From an uncultured Alphaproteobacteria bacterium (GTDB lineage Bacteria; Pseudomonadota; Alphaproteobacteria; Rhizobiales; Xanthobacteraceae), in the NCBI GenBank assembly GCA_963756715.1, contig CAVWOV010000035.1, positions 85,728 through 149,727 on the forward strand: DNA of 64,000 nucleotides, written 5' to 3'. Below the pieces are notes generated by a model, which searched no databases, was not told the DNA's origin, and saw nothing but the letters and a program-made list of their open reading frames with translations. The stretch's first letter is position 1. Each line of letters starts with the position of its first letter. Positions 18,004-45,480 of the stretch are shown here, one piece after another. Both the position numbers and the translations under genes were made by a program.

Positions 18004-18006
18004 GCG

Positions 18007-20012: not shown

Positions 20013-20070
20013 CGCAGAATTCCAGCGAGGCGCGCGGCAGCCGCCACGCCCCCGCAGAAGATGGACTGCG

Positions 20071-20240: not shown

Positions 20241-20246
20241 TCGCCG

Positions 20247-21290: not shown

Positions 21291-21524
21291 AACTTGCTCC
21301 CTCCGCTTTTGTTGAAATGACTCTGGATCATTTTTGTTGATTTGACTGTGGATCATACAGCCGGCCGGGACCATCCTGATCTGTCGCGACGATCTGTCGC
21401 GACAGATTGGTTTCCGCCAACGCCGACTGGCTCAGCACCAATGAATACCGGGTTTGCCGCGAGCCTTTTGCATCGGCGCAAAGCAACAGGATTCAGGAAA
21501 CGAGCCCGTCAGGCGGAGGAATCT

Positions 21525-21995: not shown

Positions 21996-22165
21996 ACCCA
22001 AGCTGCGGTGCACGTTGACGCAATTTGTTCGAATGCCGCGTCCGGATTCCGAAGTTTGCATCAGAGATGCGCAACCACATCTCGCAGTAGTGGCAACCCA
22101 GGTACGGTCGGCATCTTCCGCCCGATGTTTGCGTTGGGCGAGACATCGCATTCGCGTCATAACAA

Positions 22166-22231
22166 CCGCTGCTGCATTTGCTCACGGCGTTCCTGGAGCC
22201 GCTGCTGCATTTGCTCACGGCGTCCTGGAAC
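22166..22231. repeat. 33-nt tandem duplication (2 copies)
   Basis: CCGCTGCTGCATTTGCTCACGGCGT occurs at 22166-22190 and again at 22199-22223 with similar 8-nt tails. On the minus strand one frame reads ..QERREQMQQRLQERREQMQQRLL-stop. Confidence 0.8.
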
Positions 22232-22363
22232 TCGTCGCGCCGTACAGCGAGCTGCTCGAAGTTTTGCATCCGGCAGTAAGCAGACATTGACGGTTTTTGT
22301 GGAGTACAAGCCTGAGCAGGGCGGCGGCGTGCGCCGCCGATTCAAATTTTCAGGAGTGAGTGA

Positions 22364-24611: not shown

Positions 24612-26453
24612 TCACGGGGTGGCCGGTTGCTCCTTGATCTCCGGCTCCGGCATGACTTCGCGAATCCGGCTGCGGTCACCTTCCGTATGCAGCGTTAGAT
24701 GCCGGTTATGGAACACCTTGAGCGTCGAGCGGTGCCCGATCGATATGATGGTCGTGGTTGGCAGCCGCTCGTGCAGCAGGCGGTAGACGCGGGCTTCGGC
24801 GGGTTCGTCCAGCGACGCCGACGCCTCATCGAGAAACAGATAGTCCGGCGCATGCAGGATGGCGCGCGCGATGCCGAGACGCTGCTGCTCGCCGAGCGAC
24901 AGAATCCGGTTCCAGTGTGCTTCGTCGGTTAGCCGCTGCGCGAGCGCCGGCAGCCCGACCGCCACCAGCACCTCGGAGACGCATGCCGATTCGAAGGCGC
25001 CCGCCTCCGCCGGATAGCTCACCGCTTCCTCGAGGCTGGCGACCGGGAAGTAGGGCCGTTGCGGCAGGATCATGAGCTTGGCGCCGCGCGGCACCACGAT
25101 GTTGCCGGTGGCGAACGGCCACAGGCCGGCAACCGCGCGGAAGAAGGTGGATTTGCCGCCACCCGACGGCCCCGTCACCAGGGCGTGCTGGCCGGCCTCG
25201 ATGACGATGTCATCGCTGGCGACGAGCGGCGCACCGGAGGGCAGCCGGACCGACAACCCTTCGATCGTCAGCCCGGTCTTGGTTTCGTGGGCGGTGACGT
25301 CGACCCGCGGCGACGAGGCGGTGGCAGCGCGCGCGACCGCGATCGAGTGGTCGAAGCCGTCGAGCCGGGCGATCACGGCGCGCCATTCGGCGAAATCTTT
25401 ATAGATCGTGATGAAGAACGACAGTGCACCCTGCACGCTGTTGAAAGCCGAGGAGGTCTGCACCAGGGCGCCAAGCTGGATCACACCGGAAAAATAGGCC
25501 GGGCTGACGACAACGATCGGAAAAACGATCGAAATCTGGGTGTAGCCGGTGGTGAAGAACGTGAGTCCCTTCTGCCGTGACATGATGAGATGCCAGTTGC
25601 GGACGACGTTGCCGAAGCGGCTGTACAGCCGCTTTGATTCGGTCTTTTCGCCGCCCAGCATGGCGATCTGCTCGGAGTTCTCCAGCACGCGCACCAGATT
25701 GAAGCGGAAGTCCGCCTCGTATCGCTGCTGGTTGAAATTGAGCGGAATGAGCCGCCAGCCGATCCAGTGCGTGATCGCCGTGCCGGCAACCGCGTAGATC
25801 AATGCCGCCCATACCAGATAGCCCGGGATCGTGGTGATCTCGAAGCCAAATATCTGGAATGGTGCGGCGTTCGACAGCGTCCACAGGATGACGATGAACG
25901 ACGCCAGTGTCACCACCGCGCTCAGCATCCCGACGCCGATCGTCAGCGTGCGCTCGATGAACAGCCTGATGTCTTCAGCGATGCGCTGATCGGGATTGTC
26001 GGCGGTGTCGCCGAGCAACTGCATGCGATAATGCGTGGCGTCGTCCAGCCAGTTGTCGAGATACTGCCGGGTCATCCAGCGGCGCCAGCGGATCTGCAGC
26101 CACTGATTCAGGTACAGCTTGTAGACGTGCAACACCGTCGCGGCGGTCGCAAGGACGCAGTAGTACAAAAGCTGGTGGACAAAGACATCCCAATCCCTGC
26201 CCTGCAGGGCATTGTAGAAACTGTTCTGCCAATACGTGAGCAGGACCGTGACGCCGACGAGGCTGAGTTCGACGGCGATCACCGCGGCAAGCAAAACGCG
26301 GCCGGGCCAGCGATCCTCCGATCGAAAGTATGGGATGGCGAGCCGCCAGATGGTGGAAAACGACGAGACGATGCCGGTCACAGGGCTCTCCGACAGGTTT
26401 GCTTCGGTATGGGTTGCATATTGCCAATCGTCGCTCGCGTTTCGATCGGACAT
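24612..26453 (-). CDS. SbmA/BacA-type (ABC_membrane_2, YddA/BclA-like) transmembrane domain fused to an ABC ATPase
   Basis: 613-aa ORF. N-terminal TMD ..FRSEDRWPGRVLLAAVIAVELSLVGVTVLLTYWQNSFYNALQ..NPDQRIAEDIRLF.., and C-terminal Walker A GPSGGGKST, signature LSLGEQQRLGIARA, Walker B LFLDEASASLD. Confidence 0.8.
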   Translation of the reverse strand: MSDRNASDDWQYATHTEANLSESPVTGIVSSFSTIWRLAIPYFRSEDRWPGRVLLAAVIAVELSLVGVTVLLTYWQNSFYNALQGRDWDVFVHQLLYYCVLATAATVLHVYKLYLNQWLQIRWRRWMTRQYLDNWLDDATHYRMQLLGDTADNPDQRIAEDIRLFIERTLTIGVGMLSAVVTLASFIVILWTLSNAAPFQIFGFEITTIPGYLVWAALIYAVAGTAITHWIGWRLIPLNFNQQRYEADFRFNLVRVLENSEQIAMLGGEKTESKRLYSRFGNVVRNWHLIMSRQKGLTFFTTGYTQISIVFPIVVVSPAYFSGVIQLGALVQTSSAFNSVQGALSFFITIYKDFAEWRAVIARLDGFDHSIAVARAATASSPRVDVTAHETKTGLTIEGLSVRLPSGAPLVASDDIVIEAGQHALVTGPSGGGKSTFFRAVAGLWPFATGNIVVPRGAKLMILPQRPYFPVASLEEAVSYPAEAGAFESACVSEVLVAVGLPALAQRLTDEAHWNRILSLGEQQRLGIARAILHAPDYLFLDEASASLDEPAEARVYRLLHERLPTTTIISIGHRSTLKVFHNRHLTLHTEGDRSRIREVMPEPEIKEQPATP

Positions 26454-26848: not shown

Positions 26849-27121
26849 TCAGTGCTTGTTCGTCGAATCCGGCGTGGCGACTGAATCTTCCGTCTGCCGG
26901 TTCATTTCAGCAGCTTCCTGCATGCTTCTGATCAGGCTATTTGGACGCATGTCGGTCCAATTCCGGTTGATGAATTCAAGGCAGGCCGCGCGGCTGTCCT
27001 CCTTGTGGACGATCGTCCAGCCCTCCGGGACTTCGATGAAGGTCGGCCAAAGGGAATGCTGTCCCTCGTCGTTGACCAGCACGTGGTAGATGCCATTTTC
27101 ATCTTCAAACGGATTTGTCAC
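26849..27121 (-). CDS. mbtH: MbtH-like protein
   Basis: [50 protein letters not shown] is the MbtH signature with its three conserved Trp. Preferred start is GTG 27121 after AGGGAG; the ORF track starts at TTG 27175. Confidence 0.9.
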
Positions 27122-27200
27122 ATCGGTCTCCCTTGACCACGCCAAGCGTGCGGCCGTCGGCTCCGTTAAGGTCAATCAGTCGGCGACGCTTCCCGTCAAG

Positions 27201-27575: not shown

Positions 27576-28220
27576 ATGTCACAGGAAGCGACCGGTTCGG
27601 GCACGGCCGAGATAAAGGATCCAGCCGTCGAGGCTGCCCCGCCCCCGATGACGATCGAAGAGCGCGACGAAGCTGCGGAAAAGCTGGTCGACCGTTTCAC
27701 GTTATGGTCCGGGGGCGCCGGGCTTATTCCGATCCCGCTGGTCGACATCGCGGCGGTTGGCGGCGTCCAGATCCAGATGCTGCGACGCCTTTCCGAACTT
27801 TACGATGTTCCGTTTTCCGAGAATGCCGGGAAATCCGTGCTGGCAAGTCTGGCCGGGTCGCTGATTCCCGCCAGTGCCGCCAGTACGACTGCGATGGGGC
27901 TCACCAGCGCGCTGAAGCTGATCCCGGGAATCGGCACGATCATCGCCGCGGTGACCATGCCGGCGTTTTCGGCCGGCGCCACCTATTTGATCGGAAAAGT
28001 GTTCATCCAGCACTTTGCGTCAGGCGGAACGCTTCTTGATTTCAACCCGCCCGACTATCGCGAGTTCATCAAGGCGCAGAAAGAGAAGCTGGACGCGCAG
28101 AAGGATAAATTGACGGCCCAAAAGGACAAGTTGACGGCCCGCTATCGCCGGTCGCCGCCCGCCGCTCAGCCCGAATCTCCGCCCCCAAGCGCGTCGAATA
28201 ATGCGCCCGCGGGCACGTGA
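27576..28220 (+). CDS. DUF697 (YcjF-type) domain protein, paralogue b, with C-terminal heptad repeats and Pro-rich tail
   Basis: AAAGGA RBS. ..GLIPIPLVDIAAVGGVQIQMLRRLSELYDVPFSENAGKSVL..LKLIPGIGTIIAAVTMPAFSAGATYLIGKVFIQHFASGG aligns residue-for-residue with 23975..24565. C-terminal AQKEKLDAQKDKLTAQKDKLTA. Confidence 0.7.
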   Translation: MSQEATGSGTAEIKDPAVEAAPPPMTIEERDEAAEKLVDRFTLWSGGAGLIPIPLVDIAAVGGVQIQMLRRLSELYDVPFSENAGKSVLASLAGSLIPASAASTTAMGLTSALKLIPGIGTIIAAVTMPAFSAGATYLIGKVFIQHFASGGTLLDFNPPDYREFIKAQKEKLDAQKDKLTAQKDKLTARYRRSPPAAQPESPPPSASNNAPAGT

Positions 28221-28600: not shown

Positions 28601-30241
28601 ATGTCATTCTTTCAACTTGTTCGCCGCGAAATGCAGAGCTCCCTGCAGCGGCTGGCCGTCATGTCCTGTCTTGGGGGCTTGAGCAACGCAACAATTCTCG
28701 CCGCGATCAATTCCGGTGCGCAAGATGCGGGCAGCGGTCACGTCAGTGTCTGGGCGGCGGCGCTTTTTGTCGTCGCGCTCTATCTCTTTATCAAGACGCA
28801 GCATTACATCTTCATAACGGCAACCGTCGAGATCGAGGCGATCATCCACAGTCTGCGAGTGCGCCTGATGGACCAGGTGCGCCGCTCCGAGCTTCTTCCG
28901 CTCGATGCGATCGGACGCTCGGAGATCGTGGCCGCCATCAACAAGGATACGGCGGCGCTCACCCAGGCGACCAACATGTTCGCCTTTGCCGGGCAGGGGA
29001 TCGTTCTGGTTATCTTCGTCGGGATTTACGTCGCGTATCTGTCGATCCTGGCGTTCGTGATAAGCGTGACGATTCTCGGCGTGGCGGCGGTGATATTTCA
29101 CGCCAAGAGTCATCAGTTGGACGCCGGAACGCGCGAGGCCGCCCAGTGGGACAATAAATTGTTCGATCGCCTGATGGACCTTCTCGACGGGTTCAAGGAG
29201 GTCAGGCTTAACAAGGCGCGCAGCGACGACCTGTACGACGACGTCATCGAGGTGTCGCGGACCGCCGCCAACATCAAGATCCGGACGCAGAGCGAAACCT
29301 TCAAGCGGTTGGTCTTCTCGCAGACCTCGATGTATCTCCTGCTCGCGTCGATCGTGTTCGTGGTTCCGACCTTCAGCAACACCACCGACGGCTCGATCAC
29401 CAAGACGACGACGGCCCTGATGTTCGTGGTCGGGGTGTGCATCGGCTTCGTACAGACGATCCCGATCCTGACGGCCGCGAATGCCGCGGCGGACAACATC
29501 GAGCGGCTCGAGGAAAGACTGCGATTGATCTCCTCGAACTCGCAGGAGGGACCGGGAAGTCCGGCGGTTCGGTTCGATAAGATCGAGATGCGGAATATCT
29601 TGTTCCGTTATGTCGACAAGCTGTCCGAGGCGGTGTTCCAGGTCGGGCCGGTCGACTTCACCCTGCGTTCCGGCGAGCTCGTCTTCATCACCGGCGGCAA
29701 TGGCTCGGGGAAGTCGACCTTCCTGAAGGTGCTCGCCGGCCTCTATCTGCCGGATTCAGGCACGATCACGCTCGATGGCGGAAGCGTTAACGATCGCACC
29801 CGCGACGATTATCGTGCTTTGATCTCGGCGATTTTCGTTGACTATCATCTTTTCCGGCGGCTGTATGGGATTGCCGATCCTGATCCCGATGAGGTCGATC
29901 GGCTGCTGACGGAGTTCCGGTTGCGCGATAAGACGCGCCTCGCCGATGGCGAGTTTACCACTCTCGATCTATCAAGCGGCCAGCGTAAGCGCCTTGCTCT
30001 CATCGTGAGCATGCTGGAAAAGCGGCCGCTGCTGTTGCTGGACGAGTGGACCGCTGATCAGGATCCGGAGTTTCGTCGCAAGTTTTACGACGAGCTGTTG
30101 CCGGCATTGCAACGTTCGGGCGCCACGATAGTGGTCATAACCCACGATGATCGCTATCTCGACGAACTGAAGATTCCGGCTCGCAGGCTTCGGATGGATG
30201 AAGGTCGCTTCGTCGGGCGGCATTCCGTGGAGAACGGCTGA
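28601..30241 (+). CDS. Cyclic-peptide-type ABC exporter (SyrD/PvdE/YojI-like fused TMD-ATPase)
   Basis: 546-aa ORF. A six-TM N-terminal half, then Walker A GGNGSGKST, signature LSSGQRKRLALI, Walker B LLLDEWTADQD. Confidence 0.85.
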   Translation: MSFFQLVRREMQSSLQRLAVMSCLGGLSNATILAAINSGAQDAGSGHVSVWAAALFVVALYLFIKTQHYIFITATVEIEAIIHSLRVRLMDQVRRSELLPLDAIGRSEIVAAINKDTAALTQATNMFAFAGQGIVLVIFVGIYVAYLSILAFVISVTILGVAAVIFHAKSHQLDAGTREAAQWDNKLFDRLMDLLDGFKEVRLNKARSDDLYDDVIEVSRTAANIKIRTQSETFKRLVFSQTSMYLLLASIVFVVPTFSNTTDGSITKTTTALMFVVGVCIGFVQTIPILTAANAAADNIERLEERLRLISSNSQEGPGSPAVRFDKIEMRNILFRYVDKLSEAVFQVGPVDFTLRSGELVFITGGNGSGKSTFLKVLAGLYLPDSGTITLDGGSVNDRTRDDYRALISAIFVDYHLFRRLYGIADPDPDEVDRLLTEFRLRDKTRLADGEFTTLDLSSGQRKRLALIVSMLEKRPLLLLDEWTADQDPEFRRKFYDELLPALQRSGATIVVITHDDRYLDELKIPARRLRMDEGRFVGRHSVENG

Positions 30242-31509
30242 TGAGAGCATATCCGACCCTGGAGGGAACGCCCCTTCCGCCACCGAAGAAGAGCTGGTGG
30301 CGGCATTTCATCGAGCACCGGCTGCCCGGCATCGTCATCTTCCTGATGGTCGTGTCGCTGATCGTTGTCGTGCTCTATCCCTACATGGTGGTGTCGGTTC
30401 CGAGCGGTCACGTTGGCGTCCTGTGGAAGCGGTTTGGCGGCGGCACGGTGCTGGATCGCCGCGATTTGAAGGACGAGGGCCTTCACATCCTCTTTCCCTG
30501 GGACCGGCTGTTTCTGTATGACCTGCGATTGCAGTCGATCACCGAGACCTACCACGCCATCACCAAGGACGGCGTGAGCATCGGAGCGACCATCAACGTC
30601 CGATTCCGGCTGCAGCACGACTTCGTCCCTAAGCTGCAGCAGGCAGTCGGGCCGGATTATCTGAATTTGCTGGTGCGCCCCGAGATCGGCAGCCGCGTGC
30701 GCGAGGTCATTGCCGAGTACACGGCCGAAGAGGTCTATTCGACGAAGCGTCAGGAGATTCAGGATATCGGCCGCGAGCGCACCAAGAAGATGATGGGCGA
30801 GATGGCCGAACGGGAAACCGGCGAGCTGCAAAGAATCAAGCTGAGCGAGACGCTCAAAATCTACGACGTGCTCATTTTGGATATCGAGCTGCCGGCGATC
30901 GTGGTCAACGCCATCAATCGCAAGATCGAACAGTATTATGTCTCGGAGGAGTACAAGTTTCGCGTTGAGCGCGAACGGCGGGAGTCGGAACGCAAGCAGA
31001 TCGAGGCGGTCGGTATCCGCAATTTCCAGCAGACCGTGAGCCAGGGAATCTCGGATTCCTATTTGCGATGGCGCGGCATCGAGGCGACGCTTCAACTCGC
31101 ACAATCGAACAACGCGAAGATCGTGATTGTCGGCGGCGGCAAGGACGGTCTTCCGATCATTCTCGGTAATGTCGACGCGCCGGCGACGGCGCCCGCAACG
31201 CGGCCTGCTCCCCCGGAGGGCGATCCGGCCGCGAAGGAAAGACCCACGGCGGCAGGTCCGGCAAAGCCGCTGGAGAAGACGCCGGCGACCGGTCTGGCGA
31301 CGCCTGCTGAGAAGGCGCCGCCCGCCGATGCCACGCCTTCGTCGGCGGCCGCGACGCCGCCGGCGTCGACACCGGCTCCGCCACGTCAGTCGTGGCCGCT
31401 GACTTTGGCCGACTTCGAGGCCATGCTGTCCCGACTTGTGCGTCCGATCGATCCGAATTCGGCGTCGAAGCCGCCGCAATCGACCGAAGGACGGACGGCT
31501 CAGCCTTAG
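30241..31509 (+). CDS. SPFH/band-7 (prohibitin/HflC-like) membrane protein with a long Pro/Ala/Thr-rich C-terminal tail
   Basis: ATG overlaps the exporter stop (TGATG). N-terminal TM helix, SPFH core (..VPSGHVGVLWKRFGGG..ITKDGVSIGATINVRFRL..), a coiled-coil region, then ..APATAPATRPAPPEGDPAAKERPTAAGPAKPLEKTPATG... Confidence 0.8.
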   Translation: MRAYPTLEGTPLPPPKKSWWRHFIEHRLPGIVIFLMVVSLIVVVLYPYMVVSVPSGHVGVLWKRFGGGTVLDRRDLKDEGLHILFPWDRLFLYDLRLQSITETYHAITKDGVSIGATINVRFRLQHDFVPKLQQAVGPDYLNLLVRPEIGSRVREVIAEYTAEEVYSTKRQEIQDIGRERTKKMMGEMAERETGELQRIKLSETLKIYDVLILDIELPAIVVNAINRKIEQYYVSEEYKFRVERERRESERKQIEAVGIRNFQQTVSQGISDSYLRWRGIEATLQLAQSNNAKIVIVGGGKDGLPIILGNVDAPATAPATRPAPPEGDPAAKERPTAAGPAKPLEKTPATGLATPAEKAPPADATPSSAAATPPASTPAPPRQSWPLTLADFEAMLSRLVRPIDPNSASKPPQSTEGRTAQP

Positions 31510-31525: not shown

Positions 31526-32185
31526 CTACGCTCTCGGGGACCTCTCCGCCCCGATGGGAGACAGGAACGCCACCGCCACCAGGTGCGTCGACACGCAAAA
31601 TCGCAGGTCGACGACCCGGCCGTTGCGGACGGTGGCGGTACGCTCCGGGAAACTGACTTCGACGTCGTGATGATCGAGAAAGGTCTGATCGAGCGGAAAA
31701 ACCGCCTTGTACGCCGCTTCCTTGGCGACAAAGAGCAGCCGTCCGCCGTACGGGTCGTGACCGATATTCAGCCGCTCGGCGGGCGTCGCGACCAACTCCA
31801 CCAAGTCGGGCGGCAACGGTTCCGCCGGCTCGATGTCGATGCCCAGCGCGCCGACCTCACGCTGTAGCCCGACCGCCGCAATCGCGACCCGCGCGTCGTG
31901 GGCCATGGAGCCAACGACGCCCGCCGGCCAGATCGGGGCGCCCGAGGGGGATTTCAGCAATTCGTAATCCGGGATCCCCAGTCGCGCGAGGAGTTCCCGT
32001 GCGACGAGACGCGCCGCCCCGCTCGCTCGGCGCACACCGACGACGCTTGACGCGAATGCCTGGGTTTCATTGGGCAGCAGGGCATCTTCGTCGCCTGGTA
32101 AGATCAGCCGGTGCGCGATCATGATCCCCGGCACAACGAGCGCGGCGGTCGCCGACTCAAGCGAGGGATCCGTGGTCGCGGTCAT
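31526..32185 (-). CDS. 4'-phosphopantetheinyl transferase (EntD/Sfp type)
   Basis: ..GIDIEPAEPLP.. and ..FVAKEAAYKAV.. PPTase motifs. Starts 59 nt downstream of the NRPS stop on the same strand. Confidence 0.85.
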   Translation of the reverse strand: MTATTDPSLESATAALVVPGIMIAHRLILPGDEDALLPNETQAFASSVVGVRRASGAARLVARELLARLGIPDYELLKSPSGAPIWPAGVVGSMAHDARVAIAAVGLQREVGALGIDIEPAEPLPPDLVELVATPAERLNIGHDPYGGRLLFVAKEAAYKAVFPLDQTFLDHHDVEVSFPERTATVRNGRVVDLRFCVSTHLVAVAFLSPIGAERSPRA

Positions 32186-33099
32186 GATTCGAACAGGTCA
32201 GGGGTCGGCGATGATACCATCCGCAGCGCGGGCGCGCGCGGCTTCATGAAGGCAGGTCATCGGCCAGGGGTGACGCATGATGCGTCGGCAGAGAAACCGG
32301 GGAACGTGCGGGGCTATCGAGTTCGCTCGCCAGCACCCGGCAAATCTCGGCGACCGGAGCGGGGTCCATCATGGTCTCGTGCGTGCACTCGATGCGATGG
32401 ACCTTGATCCGGCCGTCGACAAAGGGCTTCCAAGTCTCGATCGGCGGCTTCGGTTCGCCTTCTGTCGCCACGAAGAGCAGCATGTCGCCGTGGAATCGCT
32501 GCGGCGAGAATCTCCTCATGAGGCGGGTGCTGTTCTCGAACGAATCCATGATGGCTTGATGGTGACGTTCGGCGAGCACTGATCGAATGTGCCCTTCGCG
32601 TTGAAGAGTTTCCAGCATAGCTTCTAGCGGCGCGTTGGCCACACCGGCGAAAAGAACTTCCTTTTCGCGTTCCTCGTCATTCGGAAGCAGCAGCGTCTCA
32701 CGATCGCTTGGATAGCTATCGAGAAGGGCGAGCACAGCGACCTCTTCGCCGATCGACTGCAGGCGCGTGGCGATTGCATGGGCCACAAGACCGCCAAACG
32801 ACCAGCCGAGTAGGTTGTAGGGCCCGACCGGTTGAACTTCGCGAATGAGGTTGAGATAGTCGGCCGCCATGTCCTCGATCGTTTCGGGAAACGCATCTTG
32901 CTCCGTTAGATTTCGGGCCTGCAATCCGTAAATCGGATGATCCGGCGGTATGTGCCGGATGAACCTCGAATACGGCCAACTGAATCCGCCCGCGGGATGA
33001 ACGCAAAATAACGGGCGCGAATTTCCCGACCGGCGAATTGGCAGTAGCGCCTCAAAATCGGAATGGCTCGGTGCATCCGCCGTGAGCTGTCTGGCGAGC

Positions 33100-33890
33100 G
33101 CCGCCACGGTCGGGGCCTCGAACAGGCTGCGGATCGCGATCTCGACATCGAGCGCGGCGCGGATGCGGCCGATCAGCCGGGTGGCCAGCAGCGAGTGTCC
33201 GCCAAGCTCGAAGAAGTTGTCGTCGATGCCGACCTGCGCGAGCCCCAGCGTCTCGGCAAACAAACCGCACAGCACCTCCTCGTGCGGCGTGCGCGGCAGA
33301 CGCCGCAGCGCCATGACGGGCGCCTCCGGCTCGGGCAGCGCCCGCCGGTCGAGCTTGCCGTTCGGCGTCAGCGGCAGCCGAGGGAGCACCACGAACGCCG
33401 CCGGCACCATGTAGTCCGGCAGGCTCGATGACAGGTGCGCGCGCAGCGCCGCCGCATCCGGCGCCGTCGCGCCGTCGGTTGCGACCACATACGCCACCAG
33501 CCGCAGCGAACCACTACCGCTCCCGCCTGCGGCGCCAGCGTCGTGGGCGTTATCGGATGTCTGACTGTCTTGCGAAGTGGGCCCGCCATCGCGCCGCGCC
33601 ACCACGGCGGCCTGCGCCACGCCCTCATGGCGCTTGAGCGCCGCCTCGATCTCGCCCGGCTCGATGCGGAAGCCGCGCAGCTTCACCTGCGCGTCCGCCC
33701 GCCCCAGGAAGTCCAGCACCCCATCGGGCCGCCAGCGCGCCAGGTCGCCGGTGCGGTACATCCGGCTCCCCGCCGGACCAAACGGGTCGGCCACAAACCG
33801 CTCCGCCGTCAGACCCGAACGCCCCAGATAGCCCCGCGCCAGACCCGCACCCGCAACATACAATTCGCCGCTCACGCCCGGAGGAACGGG
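33100..33890. repeat. Intragenic NRPS repeat, copy in module 3 (A6-A10 subdomain + carrier domain)
   Basis: 791 nt, the same length as 41541-42331. I found only about 6-8 mismatches by eye. Confidence 0.9.
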
Positions 33891-34656
33891 ACGCAGACCG
33901 TCATCCAGCACGTACACCTGCGTGTTCCAGATCGGACGACCGATCGGAATGGACGGCAGCGGTTGTTCGGGCAGAGCGGCGGCGTCGGTAATTTGCCACG
34001 ACGTGATCTGGATCGTGGTCTCGGTCGGTCCGTAGAGATTGACCAGCGGTATGTGCAAGCTGGTGACGGCATCTCGCGCTGATGTTGCGGGAGAGCGCTT
34101 CGCCGCCGGCAAACACTCGTTTGAGTCGCCGCAATGCGTCCGGCGGGGCAGCAGCGAGGACCGTTTCCAGCAGCGAAGGGACGAACTGCGCGACCGTGAT
34201 GCCTTGGCGTTCGATGTAGCTGGCGAGTTGGCCGGGATCGCGCGTTACCGCCGTGGGCGCGATGCAGACGGCCGCGCCGGTCACCAACGGCAGCCAGATC
34301 TCCCAGCCGGCAGCGTCGAAGCTGATGGCGGTGCGGGCCAATACGACATCGCTTTCGTTGGCCGGATATTCCTGCCGCATCCACAGCATGTGATTGGCAA
34401 GGCCGCGATGGGTGACGGCGACGCCTTTGGGCTGGCCCGATGAGCCTGAGGTGTAGATGACGTAGGCGGTGGAGTGCGGGTCGATGCGGCCGGGCGGTGC
34501 GGTGGTTGGGTGACGCGCGATGGCGGCGGTGTCGGCGTCGAGGTCGACGATGCGGGCGGTGTGGGCGGGCAGGCGTGTGAGCAGCGCGGTCTGGGTGACC
34601 AGGAGCGGGGCGCCGGCATCGCGCAGCATGAAGGCGAGGCGCTCGGTTGGATAATC

Positions 34657-35040
34657 CGGATCGAGCGGCAGGTATGCGGCGCCGGCCTTGAGGATACCGA
34701 TGAGGGCGATGACCATGTCGAAGGAGCGCTCGACGCAGAGCGCCACGATGGTCTCGGGTCCGGCGCCGAGGGAGCGCAGGTGGTGCGCAAGCTGGTTGGC
34801 GCGGGCGTCAAGCTCGCGGTAGCTGAGGCTTTCATCCTCGCAGGTGAGCGCGACCGCGTCCGGGGTGCGGGCGGCCTGCCGGGCGAACAGCTCCGGGATG
34901 GTGGCGGTCGGGGATCGGGCGGGCGGTGTCGTTCCAGTCGGTCAGGATGGTGCGGCGCTCGGCGGCGGAGAGAATGTCGAGGCTGCCGATGGCGCGGGTA
35001 GGGTCGCTGACGGCGGCCGTCGAGCAGCCGGGTGAGGCGC
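34657..35040. repeat. Second intragenic NRPS repeat (C-domain end + A1-A2 motifs), module 3 copy
   Basis: Near-identical to 39601-39980 except for a few substitutions and two extra c residues at about 34909 and 35021. Confidence 0.85.
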
Positions 35041-36870
35041 TCGCCGATCGCCTGGACGCTGGCCGCATCGAACAGGTCGGCGCGGTAGTCGAGCCGCAGC
35101 CGCAATCGTTTGCCCGGCGCCGCCAGCAGGCTCAGCGGATAGTGCGTGGCGTCGTGTCCGGCGATGCCGGTGACACGCAGGCCGCCAGCTTCGGTAGCGA
35201 GGCCCGCCTCGTCGACCGGATAGTTCTCGAACACCGTCAGCGTGTCGAACAGCTCACCCAAGCCAGCCAGCCCCTGGATCTCGGCCAAGCCTAATTGCTG
35301 ATGTGCAATGAGCCGCGACTGGCTGTCCTGCAACTCCCTGAGCAGGTCGACGAACGGCTTGGCGGATGGCAGCTTGAGACGCAGCGGCAGCGTGTTGATG
35401 AACAGCCCCACCATGGTCTCGATGCCGGCAATCTCCGGCGGCCGGCCCGCCACCGTGACGCCGAACACCACGTCGTCGCGGCCGATCAGCCGGCCGAGCA
35501 GGATGCCCCAGGCGGCCTGGATGTAGGTGCTGAGCGTGAGCCCCTGGGCGCGCGCCTGCCGGGTCAGCGCCGTGGTGAGTTCTTCGCTCAGTTCCAGTGA
35601 GAGTTGTTCGGGCACGGCCGGCGCGCGGGTACGCTCGCGCGGTGCCAGATAGGTCGGCTCCTGCAGTCCGGCCAGCGCCTCGCGCCATGCGGCCGTCGCG
35701 GCGGCATGGTCCTGCCGGGCGATCCAGGCCAGATAGTCGCCGTAGGGGGTGACACGCGGCAGCGCCGCAGCGGCGTCACCGTCTTGGATGCGATGTTGGG
35801 CGCCATCCTGGGCGTGGGCTTGGCGGTTGTGCGCATAGAGCGTGAGCAGTTCGCGCACCAGCACCGGCAGCGACCAGCCGTCCAGCAGGATGTGATGGCT
35901 GGTGAGAACGAGCCGGTGCTCGCCGGCGGCGAGCCGGATCAGCGCAAAGCGCAACAGCGGCGGCGCGGCCAGATCGAAGCGCCCGGCGCGATCCTGCGTG
36001 AGGAGATCGGCGAGACGTTGCGTACGCGCGGCCTCGTCCAGCAGTGACAGATCGATGTTGCGCCAGTGCGGCTCGACGTCCGGCACGATGACCTGCACGG
36101 GCCGGTCGAGGCCGGTATGCCGGAAGCCCGCGCGCAGGTTGGCATGACGCTGGATGAGCCCCCGCGCCGCCGCCGCCAGGGCGTCGGCGTCGAGCGCGCC
36201 CGCGAGGTTGAGAACCAGCTGGATCGTATAGACGTCGGGCGCCTGCGCATCGTACAGCGCATGGAACAGCAGGCCCTCCTGCAGCGGCGCCAGCGGCAGG
36301 ATGTCGTCGATCCGCGGGTATTGGCGCTCCAGCTGCATCGATCTCGCTCTGGGTCAGCTTGCACCAGCGGCAGATCGCTCGGCGTGCGGCCGCCCGCACC
36401 GGGCACAGTCGCATGCCGCGCCAGTGCCGCGAGTGCCCGGAACCAGCCCTGCGCCAGGTCGCGCACCATGGCTTCATCGATCAGCGCCGGCGCCCACGTC
36501 CAGGTGGCGCTGAGGCCAGGCCCATCGGGCCCATCGAGGGTCAGCGCATTGATCTCGATGGCATGCGCCAGGGCCAGCGCCGGATCGCCGCCGCCCAGCG
36601 GCACCGCCTCGGGCGCGGCCGCCCAGTCCGCCGTGCCGTCCGGTGCCGCGGAGCCGAAGCGTCCAGGGAAGTGCCCAGGGAAGCGGCCGAGATAGTTGAA
36701 GCCGATCTGCGGCGTCGGCAGCTGCGCAAGCTGCGCGGCGGTCTGCGGGTTGAGGTAGCGCAGCAGCCCGTAGCCCAGCCCGTTGTCGGGCAGCGCCCGC
36801 AACTGCTCCTTGATGGCTTTGAGCGCGCCACCCAGTGCCGGGCCGCCCGCCAGCGCATCGTCGAGATCGA

Positions 36871-37040
36871 GCGCGCTTGGATTAGGCGCACTTGGACTAA
36901 GCGCACTGGGATCAAGCGCACTTGGATCAAGCCGCACCGGGTAGAGGCTGGTGAACCAGCCCACCGTGCGCGAGAGATCGAGGTCGGCGGCGATCTCCTC
37001 GCGGCCAAACTCCTCGCGGCCAAACTCCTCGCGGCCATGA
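36871..37040. repeat. In-frame 15-nt tandem repeats inside the epimerisation domain
   Basis: 36871-36945: gcgcNcttggaNtaN-type units x4-5, encoding LDPSALDPSALSPSAPNPSALD. 36996-37040: ctcctcgcggccaaa x3, encoding GREEFGREEFGREE directly after the conserved EGHGRE motif. Confidence 0.9.
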
Positions 37041-38137
37041 CCTTCGACATCGACCAGCACGGCGTGCCGGCCGCCACTGCGGCCATGCCGCCGGCACCAG
37101 TCCGTCACCGCCAGCGCCAGGCCGGTGAGCAGCACGTCGTTGATGCCGGCATGGAACGCCGCCGCCACGCGGGTCAGCAATGCGCCCGTCACGGTGGCGG
37201 GCAGCGTCAGCGTGAGCTCCCGGGCGGTGCCGGTGCGGTCGCGGGTACGGTCGAGCGCACCGTCGAACAATGACAGCACCGGCCCATCCCACATCCCGGT
37301 CCAGAGCGGCAGTTCGGCGATCCGAACCGGATCCTGCGCGTTGGCCGCAAGTTCATGGGCCCAGCGCCGGAACGAGCTGCCCGCCGCCGGCAATGCGGGC
37401 GTGCGGCCCTGCGCAATGCTCTCCCAGGCGGTCTTCAGGTCAGGCAGCAGGATGCGCCACGACACGCCGTCGACCGCCAGGTGATGGATCACCAGCAACA
37501 GCCGGCCCGCATCTTCCCGGCCGGCATCGAACCACACCGCCTGCAGCATCACGCCGGCGGCGGGAGCAAGCCGTCCGGCGGCCGCTTGCGCCTGCTCGGC
37601 AATCACGGCGCGCCGGGCCGCATCGTCGAGACCCGGCGATATCCACCCGGCGCAGACAGGCGTTCGCCGATACCGCGCCCGAGGGCGCCACCTCCAGGCG
37701 CCATGGTGTCGCGGTGGGCGCCACGGTGTTCGTCAGTGCCGGGCAGGGCGCCGGAGCGGGCGCCGCTGTGCTGCCCGGTGCTGCCGCAATCCCTTCTGCC
37801 GCATCGCCGAGCCGCAGCCGCAGCGCATCGTGGTGATCGAGCAGCGTCTGCAGCGCGCCAGCCAGATGATCCTCGCGCAGCGCCGCCGGCACCGTCACGA
37901 GCATCGCCTGGTTGAAGCGGTCGATCGGCCCGCCGCGTTCCGCCAGCCAGCACATGATCGGCGTCGCCGGCAGCATCCCGGTGGCGATGTCGAGACGGGT
38001 GACGGCGCTCTCCCGCAGGCCGTCCGCCACCGCCGCCAGCGTCGCCACCGTCTGATGCTGGAACACCGCGCGCGGCGTGATCATCAGCCCGGCCTTGCGG
38101 GCCCGGCTGACCAGCTGGATCGACATGATGCTGTCGC

Positions 38138-38810
38138 CGCCAAGCGCGAAGAAGTTGTCGTCGATGCCGACCTGCGCGAGCCCCAGCGTCTCGGCAAACA
38201 AACCGCACAGCACCTCCTCGTGCGGCGTGCGCGGCAGACGCCGCAGCGCCGCAACCGGCGCCTCCGGCTCGGGCAGCGCCCGCCGGTCGAGCTTGCCGTT
38301 CGGCGTCAGCGGCAGCCGATCCAGCACCACGAACGCCGCCGGCACCATGTAGTCCGGCAGGCTCGACGACAGGTGCGCGCGCAGCGCCGCCGCATCCGGC
38401 GCCGTCGCGCCGTCCTTTGCGACCACATACGCCACCAGCCGCAGCGAACCACTACCGCTCCCGCCTGGCGCCAGCTCGTGGCCGCCGTCTTGCGAAGTGG
38501 CCCGCCATCGCGGCGCGCCACCACGGCGGCCTGCGCCACGCCCGCATGGCGCTTGAGCGCCGCCTCGATCTCGCCCGGCTCGATGCGGAAGCCGCGCAGC
38601 TTCACCTGCGCGTCCGCCCGCCCCAGGAAGTCCAGCACCCCGTCGGGCCGCCAGCGCGCCAGGTCGCCGGTGCGGTACATCCGGCTCCCCGCCGGACCAA
38701 ACGGGTCGGCCACAAACCGCTCCGCCGTCAGACCCGGACGCCCCAGATAGCCCCGCGCCAGACCCGCGCCCGCAACGTACAACTCGCCGCTCACGCCAGC
38801 AGGAACAGGC
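38138..38810. repeat. Intragenic NRPS repeat, shortened copy in module 2
   Basis: Aligns with 33201-33890 but is about 17 nt shorter, owing to a rearranged low-complexity linker around 38460-38500. Confidence 0.85.
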
Positions 38811-39600
38811 CCAGATGCATCGTCCAGTACGTACGCTGCGATAGTTCCGGCATCGGGCGGCCGATCGGGATCGTCGAGCTCAGCGTCATCACCGGTCACC
38901 GACAAGCTAAGTCGCATCGATCGTTGCTTCGGTCGGGCCGTAAAGATTATCGATGCTGCGCAATGCGGCATGCAGATTTGACAACTTCTTGCTGCAGCGA
39001 GATCGTGAAGAGCGCTTCGCCGCCCAGATGCAAGCTGATTAATCGCTACCTCAAAGTTGCGGGTCGCCGTAACGAAGAACGGACTGCAGATAGGACGGCA
39101 CGCAACTGACGAACGTCTTGATTCCGGTGTCGGATCGACGAGCTTGGCCGGAAGTCCGACGGCGCTTCGCGGACGCATCGGCGATCACGACCGTCGTGCC
39201 GCCGCCAACAAGCGGCCAGAAGCAACTGTTCGATCGAGGCGTCGAAAGCGAACGGATGATAAGCTGCAGCCCTGAATCGTCGCGATCAACTCGAAGTTCC
39301 TGCATCCAAGCGTAGACGATCTTGTTTGCGAGATTCGCATGCGTGACGGCGACGCCTTTGGGTTGGCCGGATCGATCCGGAGGTGTAGATGACGTAGGCG
39401 GTGGAGTGCGGATTCGATGCGGCCGGCGGTGCGGTGGTTGGCTGACGCGCGATGGCGGTGATCCAGCCGGTCAAGCAGGATCGACCGTCGGGCATCGTGG
39501 GTCGGGCAGCCTGTCGCGATCAGCGCGGCTGTGCGTCAGGAGCACTGGCGGCCGAGCATCGCGCCAGTCATGAAGGCGAGCCGCTCGGTTGGGATACTCC

Positions 39601-39980
39601 GGATCGAGCGGCAGGTATGCGGCGCCGGCCTTGAGGATACCGAGGAGGGCGATGACCATGTCGAAGGAGCGCTCGACGCAGAGCGCCACGATGGTCTCGG
39701 GTCCGGCGCCGAGGGAGCGCAGGTGGTGCGCAAGCTGGTTGGCGCGGGCGTCAAGCTCGCGGTAGCTGAGGCTTTCATCCTCGCAGGTGAGCGCGACCGC
39801 GTCCGGGGTGCGGGCGGCCTGCCGGGCGAACAGCGCCGGGATGGTGGCGGTGGGGATCGGGCGGGCGGTGTCGTTCCAGTCGGTCAGGATGGTGCGGCGC
39901 TCGGCGGGGGAGAGAATGTCGAGGCTGCCGATGGCGCGGGTAGGATCGTTGACGGCGGCCGTGAGCAGCCGGGTGAGGCG
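39601..39980. repeat. Second intragenic NRPS repeat, module 2 copy
   Basis: See 34657-35040. Confidence 0.85.
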
Positions 39981-40788
39981 GCCGGCCAGCATGGCGGCGG
40001 TCGCTTCGTCGAACAGGTCGGCGGCATATTCCAGCACGCCCGCGATGCCGGCCGGTGCGCCGTCAGGGGCGCGCTCCTCGGCGAGCGCAAACGACAGGTC
40101 GAACTTGGCGCTGGCGACCGGCACCTCCTCGAATGAGGTGCGCAGCCCCGGCAGCTCGAGGCTGACCCGGGCGTCGTTCTGGAACGCCAGCATTACCTGG
40201 AACAGCGGGTGATGCGACAGTGAGCGCGCCGGGTTGAGCACCTCCACCAAACGCTCAAATGGCAGCTCCTGGTGGCTGTAGGCCGCAAGGTTGCCGGCCC
40301 GCACCCGCGCCACCAGATCGCCGAAGCCCGGATTGCCCGAGGTGTCGGTGCGCAGCACCAACGTGTTGACGAAGAACCCCACCAGGCCGTCGAGCGCATG
40401 ATCGTGACGCCCCGCCACCGGGCTGCCGATCGGGATGTCGGTACCGGCCCCCAGCCGGCTCAGCAGCGCCGCCAGCCCGGCCTGCAGCACCATGAACAGG
40501 CTGGCGCCGTTCTGTCGCGCCAGCGCCAGCAGCTTGGCATGTAATCCGGCATCGAGCCGCAGCGGCACCCGGCCGCCCCGGTAGCTCGCGACCTCGGCCG
40601 CGGCCGGTCACTGGGAAGCGCAATCGCCTCCGGCAGGTCCGCCAGCGTCTGCGTCCAGTACGCCAGCTGGCGCGCGATGGCGCTTGCCGGATCGCTCTCC
40701 TCGCCCAGAACCTCGTGCTGCCACAGCGTGTAGTCGGCATACTGCACGGGCAGCGCCGGCAGCGCATCGGCCTCCGGCGCGACGCCGC

Positions 40789-40878
40789 CATCAAGCCGCG
40801 CCGCATCGGCGCGGGTGCGATCAAGCCGCGCCGGATCGGCGCGGGTGCCATCAAGCCGTGCCGCATAGGCCTGCGCGA
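40789..40878. repeat. In-frame 30-nt tandem repeat x3 inside condensation domain 2
   Basis: The unit (c/g)atcaagccgcgccgNatcggcgcgggtgc occurs at 40789, 40819 and 40849, encoding [30 protein letters not shown]. Confidence 0.9.
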
Positions 40879-40969
40879 GATCGCGCGCCAACGGCCCAAG
40901 CGAGGAGCCGTCGCCCGCGATGTGATGCAGCAGCAGCAGCAGCACGTGCTCGCGCCGATCGGGCGCGGG

Positions 40970-41125
40970 CTCACCGGACCTGCGCTCACCGGACCTGCGC
41001 CGGACCTGCGGTTGCCCGGCGCGCTCTCTCCTGACGCGCGCTCTCCTGACGCGCTATCCCCCGGCGCGCGGTCTCCCGATGCGCTTTCCGCCTGTGCGCC
41101 ATCTCCCCGTGCGCTCTCGCCCAGC
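40970..41125. repeat. In-frame 15-nt tandem repeats inside condensation domain 2
   Basis: ctcaccggacctgcg x2 plus a partial copy (40970-41010), then seven gcgcN11 units (41021-41125). Together they encode [47 protein letters not shown] just upstream of the HHxxxDG motif. Confidence 0.9.
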
Positions 41126-41520
41126 GCAAACAGATGCGCCCGCAGCGGCGGCTCACACGACAGGTCGAAGCCCCGCTGCTGCGGCGCTGCGCAAAGCGTC
41201 CGTCAGGCCGTCTGCGGCGATTGCCTCCACCCGCAGCTGCGGCCGCGCCGCACTCGCCGCCAGCACCTGCTGGCGCGGCACCCCCAGGGTGTCGGGGAAC
41301 ACCGTGCGCAGGCTCTCGTGCCGCGCCATCAGGTCGCCGAGCGCCAGCTCGAGCGCCGCAACGTCGAGATCGCCGGAGAGCCGCACCGCCAGCGGGATCG
41401 TGTAGGTCGCGCTCGGACCTTCCAGACGGTTGAGGAACCACAGCCGGCGCTGCGCAAACGACAGCGGCACTTCGGCGGGACGCCGCATCACCCGCAGCGG
41501 CGCGCGCGCCGCCGTTGCGT

Positions 41521-44500
41521 CCCCCAGCCGCCGCACCAAGGCCGCCACGGTCGGGGCCTCGAACAGGCTGCGGATCGCGATCTCGACATCGAGCGCGGCG
41601 CGGATGCGGCCGATCAGCCGGGTGGCCAGCAGCGAGTGTCCGCCAAGCTCGAAGAAGTTGTCGTCGATGCCGACCTGCGCGAGCCCCAGCGTCTCGGCAA
41701 ACAAACCGCACAGCACCTCCTCGTGCGGCGTGCGCGGCAGACGCCGCAGCGCCATGACGGGCGCCTCCGGCTCGGGCAGCGCCCGCCGGTCGAGCTTGCC
41801 GTTCGGCGTCAGCGGCAGCCGAGGGAGCACCACGAACGCCGCCGGCACCATGTAGTCCGGCAGGCTCGATGACAGGTGCGCGCGCAGCGCCGCCGCATCC
41901 GGCGCCGCCGCGCCGTCGGTTGCGACCACATACGCCACCAGCCGCTGCGAACCACTACCGCTCCCGCCTGCGGCGCCAGCGTCGTGGGCGTTATCGGATG
42001 TCTGACCGTCTTGCGAAGTGGGCCCGCCATCGCGCCGCGCCACCACGGCGGCCTGCGCCACGCCCTCATGCCGCTTGAGCGCCGCCTCGATCTCGCCCGG
42101 CTCGATGCGGAAGCCGCGCAGCTTCACCTGCGCGTCCGCCCGCCCCAGGAAGTCCAGCACCCCATCGGGCCGCCAGCGCGCCAGGTCGCCGGTGCGGTAC
42201 ATCCGGCTCCCCGCCGGACCAAACGGGTCGGCCACAAACCGCTCCGCCGTCAGACCCGAACGCCCCAGATAGCCCCGCGCCAGACCCGCACCCGCAACGT
42301 ACAATTCGCCGCTCACGCCAGGAGGAACGGGCTCCAAACCGCTGTCCAGGACATAGATTTGCAGATCGGGCAAGCCGCGACCAACAATGCTGCCGGTGCC
42401 CGCCGTTGTCGCCACGTGGTCGAGTGCGATGTGACTGACATGCACCGTCGTTTCGGTGATGCCGTACATGTTGACGAGCCGAGGAGTATCGTCCGGGTAG
42501 TGGCGGTACCATTCGCCAAGCCGTCTGAGCTCAAGCGCTTCACCGCCGAAAATCACATAGCGCAGAGCATGCTGTTTGCTTGAAATCGGAATCCGCCAGC
42601 GCCGCTTCCATCAATTGATAGAACGCGGACGGAGTCTGATTGAGGACCGTCACGCCTTCCCGAACGATCAGGCTCAGAAACTCGGTGGGCGTGCGGCTGG
42701 TGGCATACGGGACCACGACCAACCGGCCGCCATGCAGCAGGGCTCCCCAAATTTCCCATACCGAAAAGTCGAAGGCGAAGGAATGGAACAACGTCCAAAC
42801 ATCATCGGGGCCGAAGTGGAACAACTCTCTTGTCGTATCGAACAGACGAACGACATTGCGGTGCGTAACCGAGACGCCCTTCGGGTTTCCGGTCGAGCCC
42901 GAGGTGTAGATGACGTAGGCGGTGTTATGCGGCAGGAGCCTGTTCGGGGGTGAGAAGGTGGGCGCGCGCGAAATCAGCGCCTGGTCCACGTCGAAACGCA
43001 CGATCTGCATGCCCTCCGTTGGCAATCGATCGAGCAGCGTCGATTGGGTGACCAGCGTGACAACACCGGCATCGGCCAGCATGAAGGCAAGCCGCTCCGG
43101 TGGATAAGCCGGGTCGAGCGGAAGATAGGCGCCACCGGCCTTGAGAATACCGAGCAATCCAATGAGCATTTCGGGCGAGCGCTCGACGCACAGCCCCACG
43201 ATGGTTTCGGGCGCGACCCCCAGCGCCTGCAGATGATGGGCAAGCTGACTTGAGCGCTCGTCGAGCTCGCGATAGCTCAGGCTCACGCCCCCGAATACGA
43301 CCGCAATAGCGTCAGGTGATTGCGCAACCCGGCGAGCAAACAACTCAGGCAGCGTGGCCGCCGGGATTTCAAGGGCCGGCTCGACCGCAGCGGTCGCTTC
43401 ATTCCATGTATGCAGAATGGTCCGCCGCTCGCCGGCGGTAAGAATATCTAGGCTCGCGATGGTGCGGCCGGAATCCGCAAGCGCAGTCAGCAATCGCAGA
43501 AATCGCTGCTGGCGGTCCGCAACATCATCCGTGCTGTGAATTGCCGGATTGGCATCGAAATCGATCCGAAGCGGACCGCCGTCCAGCCGGTCGTAAACTT
43601 GGATCGACAAGTCCTCGACCGGCCCAAGCGAGAGGTTTTTCGCCTCCGCCCGATGGCCCGCGAAATCGAAAGCCATAGTCGAACCGCATGATATTGAGAT
43701 TGAGTCCGAACAGCGACCGAGCATCGTCGATGCCGCCAAGCTCCCGCCGTAGATCCGCAATCTGAAAACGTTGGTGTTCCAATCCGTCACGAATTTGCCG
43801 AGCGGCGCGACCGATTACCTCGGACACGGTCATGCGAGGTTGCACGGCGAGCCGCAATGGCAGCACGTTGGAAACCATTCCGGGAATGCGTCGTGCCGCG
43901 CCGCTGCGCGCGGCGACCGGCAGGCCGAAGGTCACATCTGTCGCGCCGGTGAGGCGATGCAGGAAGATTGCCGTGGCTGCGGCAATGAGATGCGGCAGGC
44001 TCGCTCCCGCATGGCGCGCGGTTAATTCGAGCTGGTCGGCGATGGACCTGGGCAGATAAACGGTGTGACGAATGAAGCCGCCGGACTTGCCGGTACGTTC
44101 GCCGCCCAGACTTACCTGGTCGGGCCGATCGGTCAGACGGTCGATCCAGTATTGCCGATCTTGTGCGAACTGCTCGGACGCGACATAAGCCGCATCCTCA
44201 TCGAGCAAATCGGCAAGGGTTCCGAATGCGCCGCCAAGGGCGGCCGGCCCAACGCTCAACCTGAGTGTAGATGTCCGCCAGGCGCCGGGCGACCAGCGCC
44301 ATTCCCAGCCCGTCCATCACGATGTGATGATAGCGTGCGTACCAGAAGAACCGGTCAGGCGACGCCCTGAACAAGGCATATGAGAACAGCGGTCCGTGCG
44401 TCGGATCGACCGGACGCGCCAGATCGGCCCTCATCCATGTTTCGGCCTCGGCGCGCGGGTCGGGCGCATCGCTGACGTCGATGAATGGCATCGACCACGC

Positions 44501-44788
44501 CGGCGCTTCGCCGACGACCTGCCGCGGGCCGTCCGGGTGCTCGACGATCCGGACACAAAGCGCCTCGGATTCGATGACGACCTGGTGTAATGCCTGCTCG
44601 AACAAGTCCGGGTCGATGGGCCCGTGAATCTCAATGTATTCGCCAATATTGTAGGCGGGACTCGATGGGTTAATCTGCTGAGCGAACCAGATTCCGATCT
44701 GGCCGGCGGAAAGCGGAAAACCAATGGGGTCGGAGATGTTACGGGTGACGTCGATTCTACTGTCACCGTCAGGCTTGATCGAAAACAC
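41521..44788 (-). other. NRPS module 1: N-terminal (starter-position) C domain, A domain (hand-read code DFWNIGMVHK = Thr), carrier domain
   Basis: C motif HHIVMDGLG. A motifs [60 protein letters not shown]. Carrier motif [11 protein letters not shown]. Approximate bounds: C 44788-43400, A 43355-41785, T 41734-41521. Frame breaks near 44255, 43680 and 42570. Confidence 0.8.
41541..42331. repeat. Intragenic NRPS repeat, copy in module 1
   Basis: See 33100-33890. Identity ends just upstream of the GELYVAGAG (A6) motif. Confidence 0.9.
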
Positions 44789-45480
44789 CTAAGACCTCAT
44801 TGAGCATGCCCCTGAGCTCGGTTGAAGCGGGCATAGTGTATGCGGTGTTTCGGTATGTGTTAACCGCAAAGTTGGTAGCGGGATGAAGGCGTTAGGATCA
44901 AGTATCGAAGTGGGCCGCCAAGCCCTCGCTGGCGCCGAACGGGAAATCCTCCGTGGCAACCCTAACGTCTTGCGGCGGCTCCAGCCAGAGACGTATCTTT
45001 GTGGCCTGTTGATGAATATCAATACCTTGCGCTTGTGGTTGTGTGCAGGAGGCTGGAGCGGACGATTCCGAGGGAATTTCTCTGCGTCCATATGGTCTGT
45101 TGCGCCAAGCGAATCGCCGGCCGCCAGCGCAGCGCAAACGCCAACCATCCAATAATACTTCATTTCTTCTTGTGGTCTATTCGCATCGACTTGCTTTGGC
45201 AGGGGTACGCACCGCGCGCCTACGGCATCGAAGGACTCGACCAGGGCCGCCTCGTCACGCGGAAATCGGGCGATTTTAGAATGATCCGTTCGCGTGATTC
45301 GGCGGACTATTGGGGGTTCTTTGTACGCGGCTTGCCCCACGTCTGTGGCGGCATGTGGTTTTCCGGTGCCACCACCACTTGGCGCGAGGCTTGTCTCGGT
45401 GACGATGTCGTGAATATTAGTTGAAGCGATATTCTTGCCTTCTCCTGCCCCCGATCATCCCCAAAGAGACAGCACGCTCT

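Follow-up and report, generated by a model that had tools for sequence, protein, structure and literature searches.

Private, insertion-biased frame breaks in a three-module NRPS gene of an uncultured alphaproteobacterium are very likely consensus errors

The minus strand of contig CAVWOV010000035.1 (assembly GCA_963756715.1), from an uncultured alphaproteobacterium of the Xanthobacteraceae, carries a 12.5-kb nonribosomal peptide synthetase (NRPS) gene that cannot be read in one piece. I analysed it within a window of 64,000 nucleotides (positions 85,728 to 149,727 of the forward strand of the contig), to which all coordinates refer unless another contig is named. An earlier sequence-only reading of this window had reported that the gene can be followed only by hopping between fragments of open reading frames (ORFs), and every fragment it listed was recovered in place. 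It left two explanations side by side, genuine decay of a biosynthetic gene or indel errors concentrated in a repeat-rich and very GC-rich gene, and the question raised by this locus is which of them holds. The breaks exist, they are lineage-specific, insertion-biased and strongly clustered, and they occur alongside strong purifying selection and intact motifs. Judging from the assembled sequences, they are very likely consensus or polishing errors of a long-read metagenome assembly, probably arising from blended co-assembled strain variants; the organism itself most likely possesses an intact NRPS whose three modules are functional.

The breaks were assessed against four independent assemblies that carry the same cluster: L001 (ERZ25039539 contig_15978), L083 (ERZ25039490 contig_7337) and L084 (ERZ25039533 contig_60191), all three from ENA, and L003, a metagenome-assembled genome (MAG) in GenBank with the title MFD02134.bin.1.66. 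The NRPS of L001 is about 90% identical to that of the window, and that of L003 about 78%. A three-way alignment comprised the window, L001 and L003, and a four-way alignment added L083. In the former, frame switches were counted from one conserved block (36 nt or more) to the next: the window NRPS shows at least 19 net switches, compared with 17 in L001 and 6 in L003. The underlying events are more numerous, about 35-40 lineage-specific small indels, so that the earlier figure of about 20 interruptions is right for net frame hops and too low for events. In the region common to the window, L001 and L003, the frame-changing indels found only in the window comprise 30 insertions versus 2 deletions. 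Of 20 single-base insertions, only 3 extend a homopolymer, and in the other 17 the added base is unlike the base on either side. About half of the events, some 19 shifts, fall within 0.8 kb of the second adenylation domain, whereas the remainder of the gene has approximately one per kb. Of the isolated breaks, most fall outside the internal repeats of 0.7-0.9 kb. Two extra bases that the sequence-only reading had located by comparing internal paralogues appeared again, independently, in the alignment with the relatives as insertions confined to the window, at 34909 and 35018 (the second had been placed at 35021, within the ambiguity of the alignment), but the break it had put on the homopolymer CCCC at 41171-41174 is better aligned as a non-homopolymer insertion of G at 41179. 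Two other ways of mapping the frames were dropped: a plot of GC content at third codon positions, which needs no reference, was too noisy at windows of 180 nt, and blastx against the ORFs of L003 under-counted breaks, as its high-scoring segment pairs cross short out-of-frame stretches.

With the frames restored, the gene has the layout of a type I modular NRPS, in the order C-A-T / C-A-T-E / C-A-T-TE (condensation, adenylation, carrier, epimerisation and thioesterase domains; PF00668, PF00501, PF00550, PF13193 and PF00975 across the fragments). The collinear domain order and the catalytic and core motifs of that class are present, and one continuous ORF is not. Pfam domains fall on fragments of all three frames of the minus strand, and the breaks interrupt single domains, which are divided between fragments, rather than module boundaries. 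The parts of the gene are as follows.

32244..44788, minus strand: three-module NRPS gene, about 4,170 codons with frames restored (ORF list, stop-free segments, Pfam, frame switches).
43600..44716, minus strand: condensation domain C1 with HHIVMDG; PF00668 on two fragments (profile positions 6-162 and 181-355), divided by a 1-nt insertion at 44264.
41525..43340, minus strand: adenylation domain A1 and carrier domain T1 (PF00501, PF13193, PF00550); window-only 1-nt insertions at 43666 and 42574.
39885..41473, minus strand: condensation domain C2 (Pfam), with a 1-nt insertion at 41179 and a 1-nt deletion at 40594.
40787-41127, minus strand: variable 15/30-nt tandem-repeat linker ahead of C2, the T1-C2 linker (found with TRF, Tandem Repeats Finder).
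38820..39620, minus strand: core of adenylation domain A2, core motifs A2 to A6, hereafter the hot stretch (identity profile, frameshift-aware alignment, length, allele painting).
38031..38441, minus strand: C-terminal subdomain of A2 and carrier domain T2 (Pfam, indel list, switch list).
36683..37558, minus strand: epimerisation (E) domain (partial PF00668 match and motif search), with a 1-nt insertion at 37636 just upstream.
35019..36305, minus strand: condensation domain C3 with HHILLDG, unbroken for 429 residues (Pfam 7.6e-82, profile positions 3-431).
32337..34887, minus strand: A3, T3 and TE (Pfam), with window-only insertions at 34909 and 34080.

On the motifs HHLAVDG, EGHGRE, GWFT and FNYLG, all in a single frame, the Condensation-type domain that follows T2 is assigned as E. 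The unbroken C3 has insertions on both sides, two upstream (36362 and 36334) and one downstream (35018).

How has selection acted on the coding sequence once the frames are restored? I restored the local frame in each ungapped alignment block and counted the codons with a single-base difference found only in the window. Of these differences, 103 are synonymous (2,368 sites) and 28 non-synonymous (6,335 sites), which corresponds to an omega of about 0.10; counted alike, L001 has 0.12 and L003 0.14. The restored frames of the window, L001 and L003 contain no in-frame stop beyond the hot stretch (approximately 2,900 aligned codons, 8,703 sites), and two stops lie inside one poorly aligned block within it.

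A genuine and very recent pseudogenisation, independent in each relative and with the accessory genes still maintained, would fit the restriction of the breaks to the NRPS amid clean neighbours, the intact NRPS genes that the same workflow has produced in other taxa, and the fragmentation of the gene in all relatives with this cluster (five assemblies, including the window). However, real breaks would leave the sequence downstream of the first one (44264) untranslated and unconstrained, and an omega of about 0.10 on the terminal branch is hard to reconcile with this. Simple arithmetic on the codon counts sets a limit: with the upper Poisson bound on the 28 non-synonymous changes, omega is at most about 0.15, and the neutral share of the terminal branch of the window at most about 7% (a few percent), or some 26 substitutions. 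Since no more than about 26 neutral substitutions would have to accompany at least 13-35 frameshifts, the ratio of indels to substitutions would be far above that of known bacterial pseudogenes, in which it is many times lower than decay would need here. Mutation in bacterial genomes is biased to deletions, the opposite of the 30:2 excess of insertions, and the insertions, being mostly non-homopolymer, are unlike slippage mutations. Clustering within 0.8 kb would not be expected if neutral decay were uniform along the gene. Nonsense substitutions are absent outside the hot stretch. In short, neither relaxed selection nor nonsense substitutions nor deletion-biased homopolymer indels spread evenly, by which a pseudogene is recognised, characterise this gene. 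Together with the lack of any break in common with the relatives, described below, these observations speak against the decaying gene that the sequence-only reading had offered as one possibility, and I consider pseudogenisation unlikely.

A further possibility is that the gene is expressed despite its breaks, whether by programmed ribosomal frameshifting, by slippage during transcription or as an NRPS naturally divided among several proteins. Split NRPS systems exist. In this gene, however, the breaks number at least 19, lie within single domains, do not coincide with slippery or homopolymer sites and are not conserved in the relatives, so that there is next to no chance of this being the explanation.

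The preferred reading, errors of consensus, predicts that breaks differ from one assembly to the next, and the comparison with orthologous loci that the earlier reading had proposed bears this out. The NRPS is also in pieces, as many short called genes or several ORFs, in L001, L083, L084 and L003, while in L001 and L083 the PPTase, Band_7, ABC, DUF697, MbtH and SbmA-type genes of the cluster are intact and in unchanged order. Frame-changing indels that the four-way alignment assigns to single lineages are distributed as follows.

Window: 25 insertions, 2 deletions.
L083: 19 insertions, 7 deletions.
L001: 8 insertions, 7 deletions.
L003: 2 insertions, 10 deletions.

No convincingly shared frameshift was found in the three-way and four-way alignments, and the few patterns of two against two lie in repeats or in the unalignable core of A2. 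The breaks are thus private to each assembly, as expected of a long-read artefact. One candidate for a break common to the window and L003, at 34080, was rejected, as it resolves into two separate events a few bases apart. A test of reproducibility with a near-identical second assembly was dropped, L084 being only about 90-92% identical and itself rearranged. In a GTDB scan L003 was the sole close relative, and a scan of JGI metagenomes for relatives from accurate short reads found none nearer than 43% amino-acid identity.

About half of the events lie in the hot stretch. Over 39620-38820 the identity of the window to L001 drops from about 0.95 to 0.65-0.78, whereas L001 and L003 compare normally there. 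Two alleles of this core occur among the relatives, type A in L001 and L003 and type B in L083, which are 61% identical to each other. The core measures 801 nt in the window, against 756 nt in L001, 758 nt in L083 and 759 nt in L003. Of the sites in the window, 19% match only type A, 21% only type B and 7% neither; the window sequence therefore appears to lie on a path between the two types, with almost no private divergence. The sites that match only one type alternate in 133 runs among 321 informative sites, where random interleaving would give 161. At 39570-39550 three extra bases occur within 20 nt, each identical to the type-A base, in a backbone that is otherwise type-B-like. A frameshift-aware alignment to the L083 protein requires about 19 shifts, nearly all of them +1 insertions (20 were reported, the last being a frame error of L083 itself), and no deletions beside them. 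The restored A2 yields the motifs YTSGS-SGQPKGV, FDAS, GGEAL, NLYGPTE and IPIGRP, as well as GELYVAG. Near-random interleaving of two alleles, at a length 42-45 nt over either, is what the consensus of a mixed pile-up would look like. The two properties of a two-haplotype blend, a position midway between the alleles and a length greater than that of both, are present in the hot stretch.

Alternatively, the hot stretch could be real, a fine-scale gene-conversion mosaic of two alleles or paralogues of the adenylation domain that destroyed module 2, with the isolated breaks as sequencing errors. Swaps of adenylation subdomain alleles, seen in modules 2 and 3, are genuine in this lineage, and the hot stretch is, over its first 380 nt, 87% identical to module 3 of the window itself. 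Yet a recombinant should consist of a few long tracts in register, and here type-A and type-B sites alternate nearly site by site, with junctions that are not in register and a product that exceeds both parental types by 42-45 nt. The roughly 19 insertions with zero accompanying deletions fit such a mosaic no better, and I regard it as highly improbable. A broader version, in which the breaks, or at least the 0.8-kb mosaic of module 2, are real and the NRPS of a soil Xanthobacteraceae-like lineage has been disrupted repeatedly and independently by insertion-generating conversion between alleles or modules while the cluster was otherwise kept, seems to me very unlikely.

The allelic diversity itself deserves description. 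The distribution of types A and B in module 2 departs from the phylogeny of the flanks. In module 3, a distinct allele is common to L001 and L084 (90% identical) and unlike that of the window, L083 and L003; the regions compared are 34100-34500 in the window, 7768-8155 in L001 and 2385-2697 in L084. To judge from these alignments, core subdomains of adenylation domains truly swap between alleles among close relatives. L083 has one NRPS module more than the window, its upstream region 1-5980 aligning twice to window 42355-39340 (modules 1-2), and the number of modules thus appears to vary within the lineage. L084 (11.6 kb, 1-11611) is rearranged, corresponding to window 36914-34399, then 42355-39532, then 42357-36915, an order suggestive of misassembly at repeats in that sample.

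Is the rest of the cluster as broken as its largest gene? The sequence-only reading had found the accessory genes intact, and this was confirmed for the following features.

31526..32185, minus strand: Sfp-type 4'-phosphopantetheinyl transferase (PPTase), intact (PF17837 and PF01648), without frameshift relative to L001 or L083.
30241-31509, plus strand: Band_7 gene, intact (Pfam, synteny).
28601-30241, plus strand: ABC ATPase, intact (Pfam, synteny).
27576-28217, plus strand: DUF697 gene, intact (Pfam, synteny).
26852-27175, minus strand: MbtH gene, intact (Pfam, synteny).
24612-26453, minus strand: SbmA/BacA-type ABC transporter, intact (Pfam, synteny).

The alignment of a 7.5-kb flank with L001 and L083 includes about 6 kb of coding sequence, in which no window-specific frameshift was detected; at one frameshift per kb, the Poisson probability of finding zero would be about 0.0025. 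At least one frameshift does occur outside the NRPS, in an alpha/beta-hydrolase gene, and a second is possible near 21.3-22.3 kb, while most other genes are single ORFs. About seven breaks had been counted earlier in the remaining 51 kb; with one verified and a second possible, that number was not confirmed, and the contrast with the NRPS is at least as strong as had been claimed.

What, then, could confine errors to one gene? The long-read catalogue of the Microflora Danica (MFD) project is Nanopore-only, its assemblies coming from Flye (--meta --nano-hq) followed by a single round of Medaka polishing (PMC12313526). L003 is, by its title, an MFD MAG and hence a Nanopore-only assembly, and L001, L083 and L084 have Flye-style contig names and neighbouring ENA accessions. 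Correction of frameshifts with proovframe after metaFlye plus Medaka has been described (PMC12818350), and Nanopore metagenomes are reported to contain NRPS and polyketide synthase (PKS) megasynthase genes that indels have broken up (Waschulin et al. 2021, PMC8692599). Nevertheless, high GC content, repeats or Nanopore sequencing alone were rejected as the cause, as other MFD MAGs contain uninterrupted NRPS ORFs of 3,868-7,504 amino acids at GC contents of 0.68-0.77, and most isolated breaks lie outside repeats. The earlier suggestion of indel errors concentrated in a repeat-rich, GC-rich gene therefore holds in substance, as errors, but GC content and repeats do not suffice as their causes where GC-richer NRPS genes elsewhere are intact. 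For the same reason the cause must be specific to the population. One further line was abandoned: short NRPS matches on long ENA contigs had seemed a sign of systematic fragmentation, but all those listed measure at most 1,205 amino acids, which suggests a length limit of the database.

Co-assembled allelic variants would account most economically for errors in the NRPS alone. A long-read-only metagenome assembly may have drawn on a population with several strain variants of a hypervariable NRPS. Where such variants differ by substitutions only, as in the flanking genes, the consensus would remain in frame; in the NRPS, with its swapped adenylation subdomains, variable linkers and clusters of differences, bases of more than one variant could be retained and appear as small insertions. 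I propose this different mechanism since the insertions do not bear the homopolymer signature of classic Nanopore errors, and strain blending is probably the specific source of the errors.

Several points weigh against this account. Every break was judged by comparing assembled sequences only, and the platform of the window, very probably long-read-only (Nanopore, Flye plus Medaka), is read off from its relatives. The population-specific cause is itself assumed, and the paucity of homopolymer insertions (3 of 20) departs from the usual signature of the technology. The absence of stops in the hot stretch under frameshift-aware alignment is weak evidence, as such an alignment penalises stops. 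Finally, in a direct test of blending, the isolated inserted base equals the allele of a relative at an adjacent site in 5 of 20 cases, compared with 12% in the control (p = 0.085), the relatives in this comparison not being the co-assembled strains.

A number of further features of the NRPS gene and its surroundings were observed. The tandem repeats of 15 and 30 nt, in the T1-C2 linker and in the E domain, differ in copy number among the relatives. The two arrays found with TRF in the E domain have 15-nt units and are in frame, at 36870-36937 (EEFGR repeated right after EGHGRE) and at 36995-37037 (DPSAL-type). Between the core and the C-terminal subdomain of the adenylation domains lies a loop insert of 66 nt in modules 1 and 3 (41957-42022 and 33516-33581) and of 47 nt in module 2 (38454-38500), the latter version shifting the frame at 38500-38453; the insert is missing from all three modules of L001 and present in shorter versions in L003. 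A repeat of about 0.9 kb over the C-terminal adenylation subdomain and the T domain occurs in three copies that are 87-94% identical. The loop inserts and these repeat copies suggest concerted evolution among the modules. Immediately upstream of the start of the NRPS, in the same frame and with one stop codon between, is an ORF of 183 amino acids (44789-45340, minus strand) without Pfam match; its codon-position GC pattern failed the filter for coding sequence, and the L003 orthologue of the NRPS begins at the equivalent of 44788.

Farther away, the alpha/beta-hydrolase at about 6692-5834 (ORFs 4992-6755 and 5834-6436, both on the minus strand) matches Abhydrolase_1 positions 2-91 in one frame and Abhydrolase_6 positions 149-217 in another, and its first frame runs by chance into the ORF of a downstream short-chain dehydrogenase (SDR). 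The region 20000-22400 has a lower GC content (0.58), a sub-threshold TctC match at 20250-21374 (minus strand) and a weak N-terminal Epimerase fragment at 21342-21872 (plus strand), and may be degraded or foreign DNA. An ORF of 787 amino acids at 17724-20084 encodes TctA and then a TctB-like region without a change of frame.

These observations call for some caution. Taken at face value, such a locus would enter the annotation either as a defunct biosynthetic cluster or as a dozen NRPS proteins marked 'partial', and fragments of this kind are present in protein databases. Hypervariable megasynthase genes can be mis-consensused even though the other genes of an assembly look clean. Artefact and decay can be told apart by tests that need no reads: omega once the frames are restored, the spectrum of the indels, their clustering and the comparison of independent assemblies. 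The class of artefact would be an ordinary and already known one, and the breaks are best filed as no real feature of the organism. The underlying biology looks ordinary as well, a three-module NRPS with real swapping of adenylation subdomain alleles among strains.

How does the locus compare with known systems? Like decaying biosynthetic pseudogenes, it has several frameshifts in one large gene with intact neighbours, but unlike these it has kept selection, lacks nonsense changes outside the hot stretch, shares no disruption with its relatives, and shows insertion bias and extreme clustering. With type I modular NRPS clusters it has in common the canonical domain order, the core motifs and the adjoining genes for MbtH, PPTase and an SbmA/BacA-type transporter, although as assembled the gene is without a full-length ORF. 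The fragmentation of megasynthase genes in Nanopore metagenomes (PMC8692599) is similar in that a long-read contig carries many ORF pieces with homology continuing across the breaks, next to normal short neighbours. The indels in the window differ from those cases in being mostly non-homopolymer insertions, half of them in a 0.8-kb stretch of an adenylation domain that is intermediate between two alleles, and it is this combination that points to blended strain variants rather than plain base-calling error.

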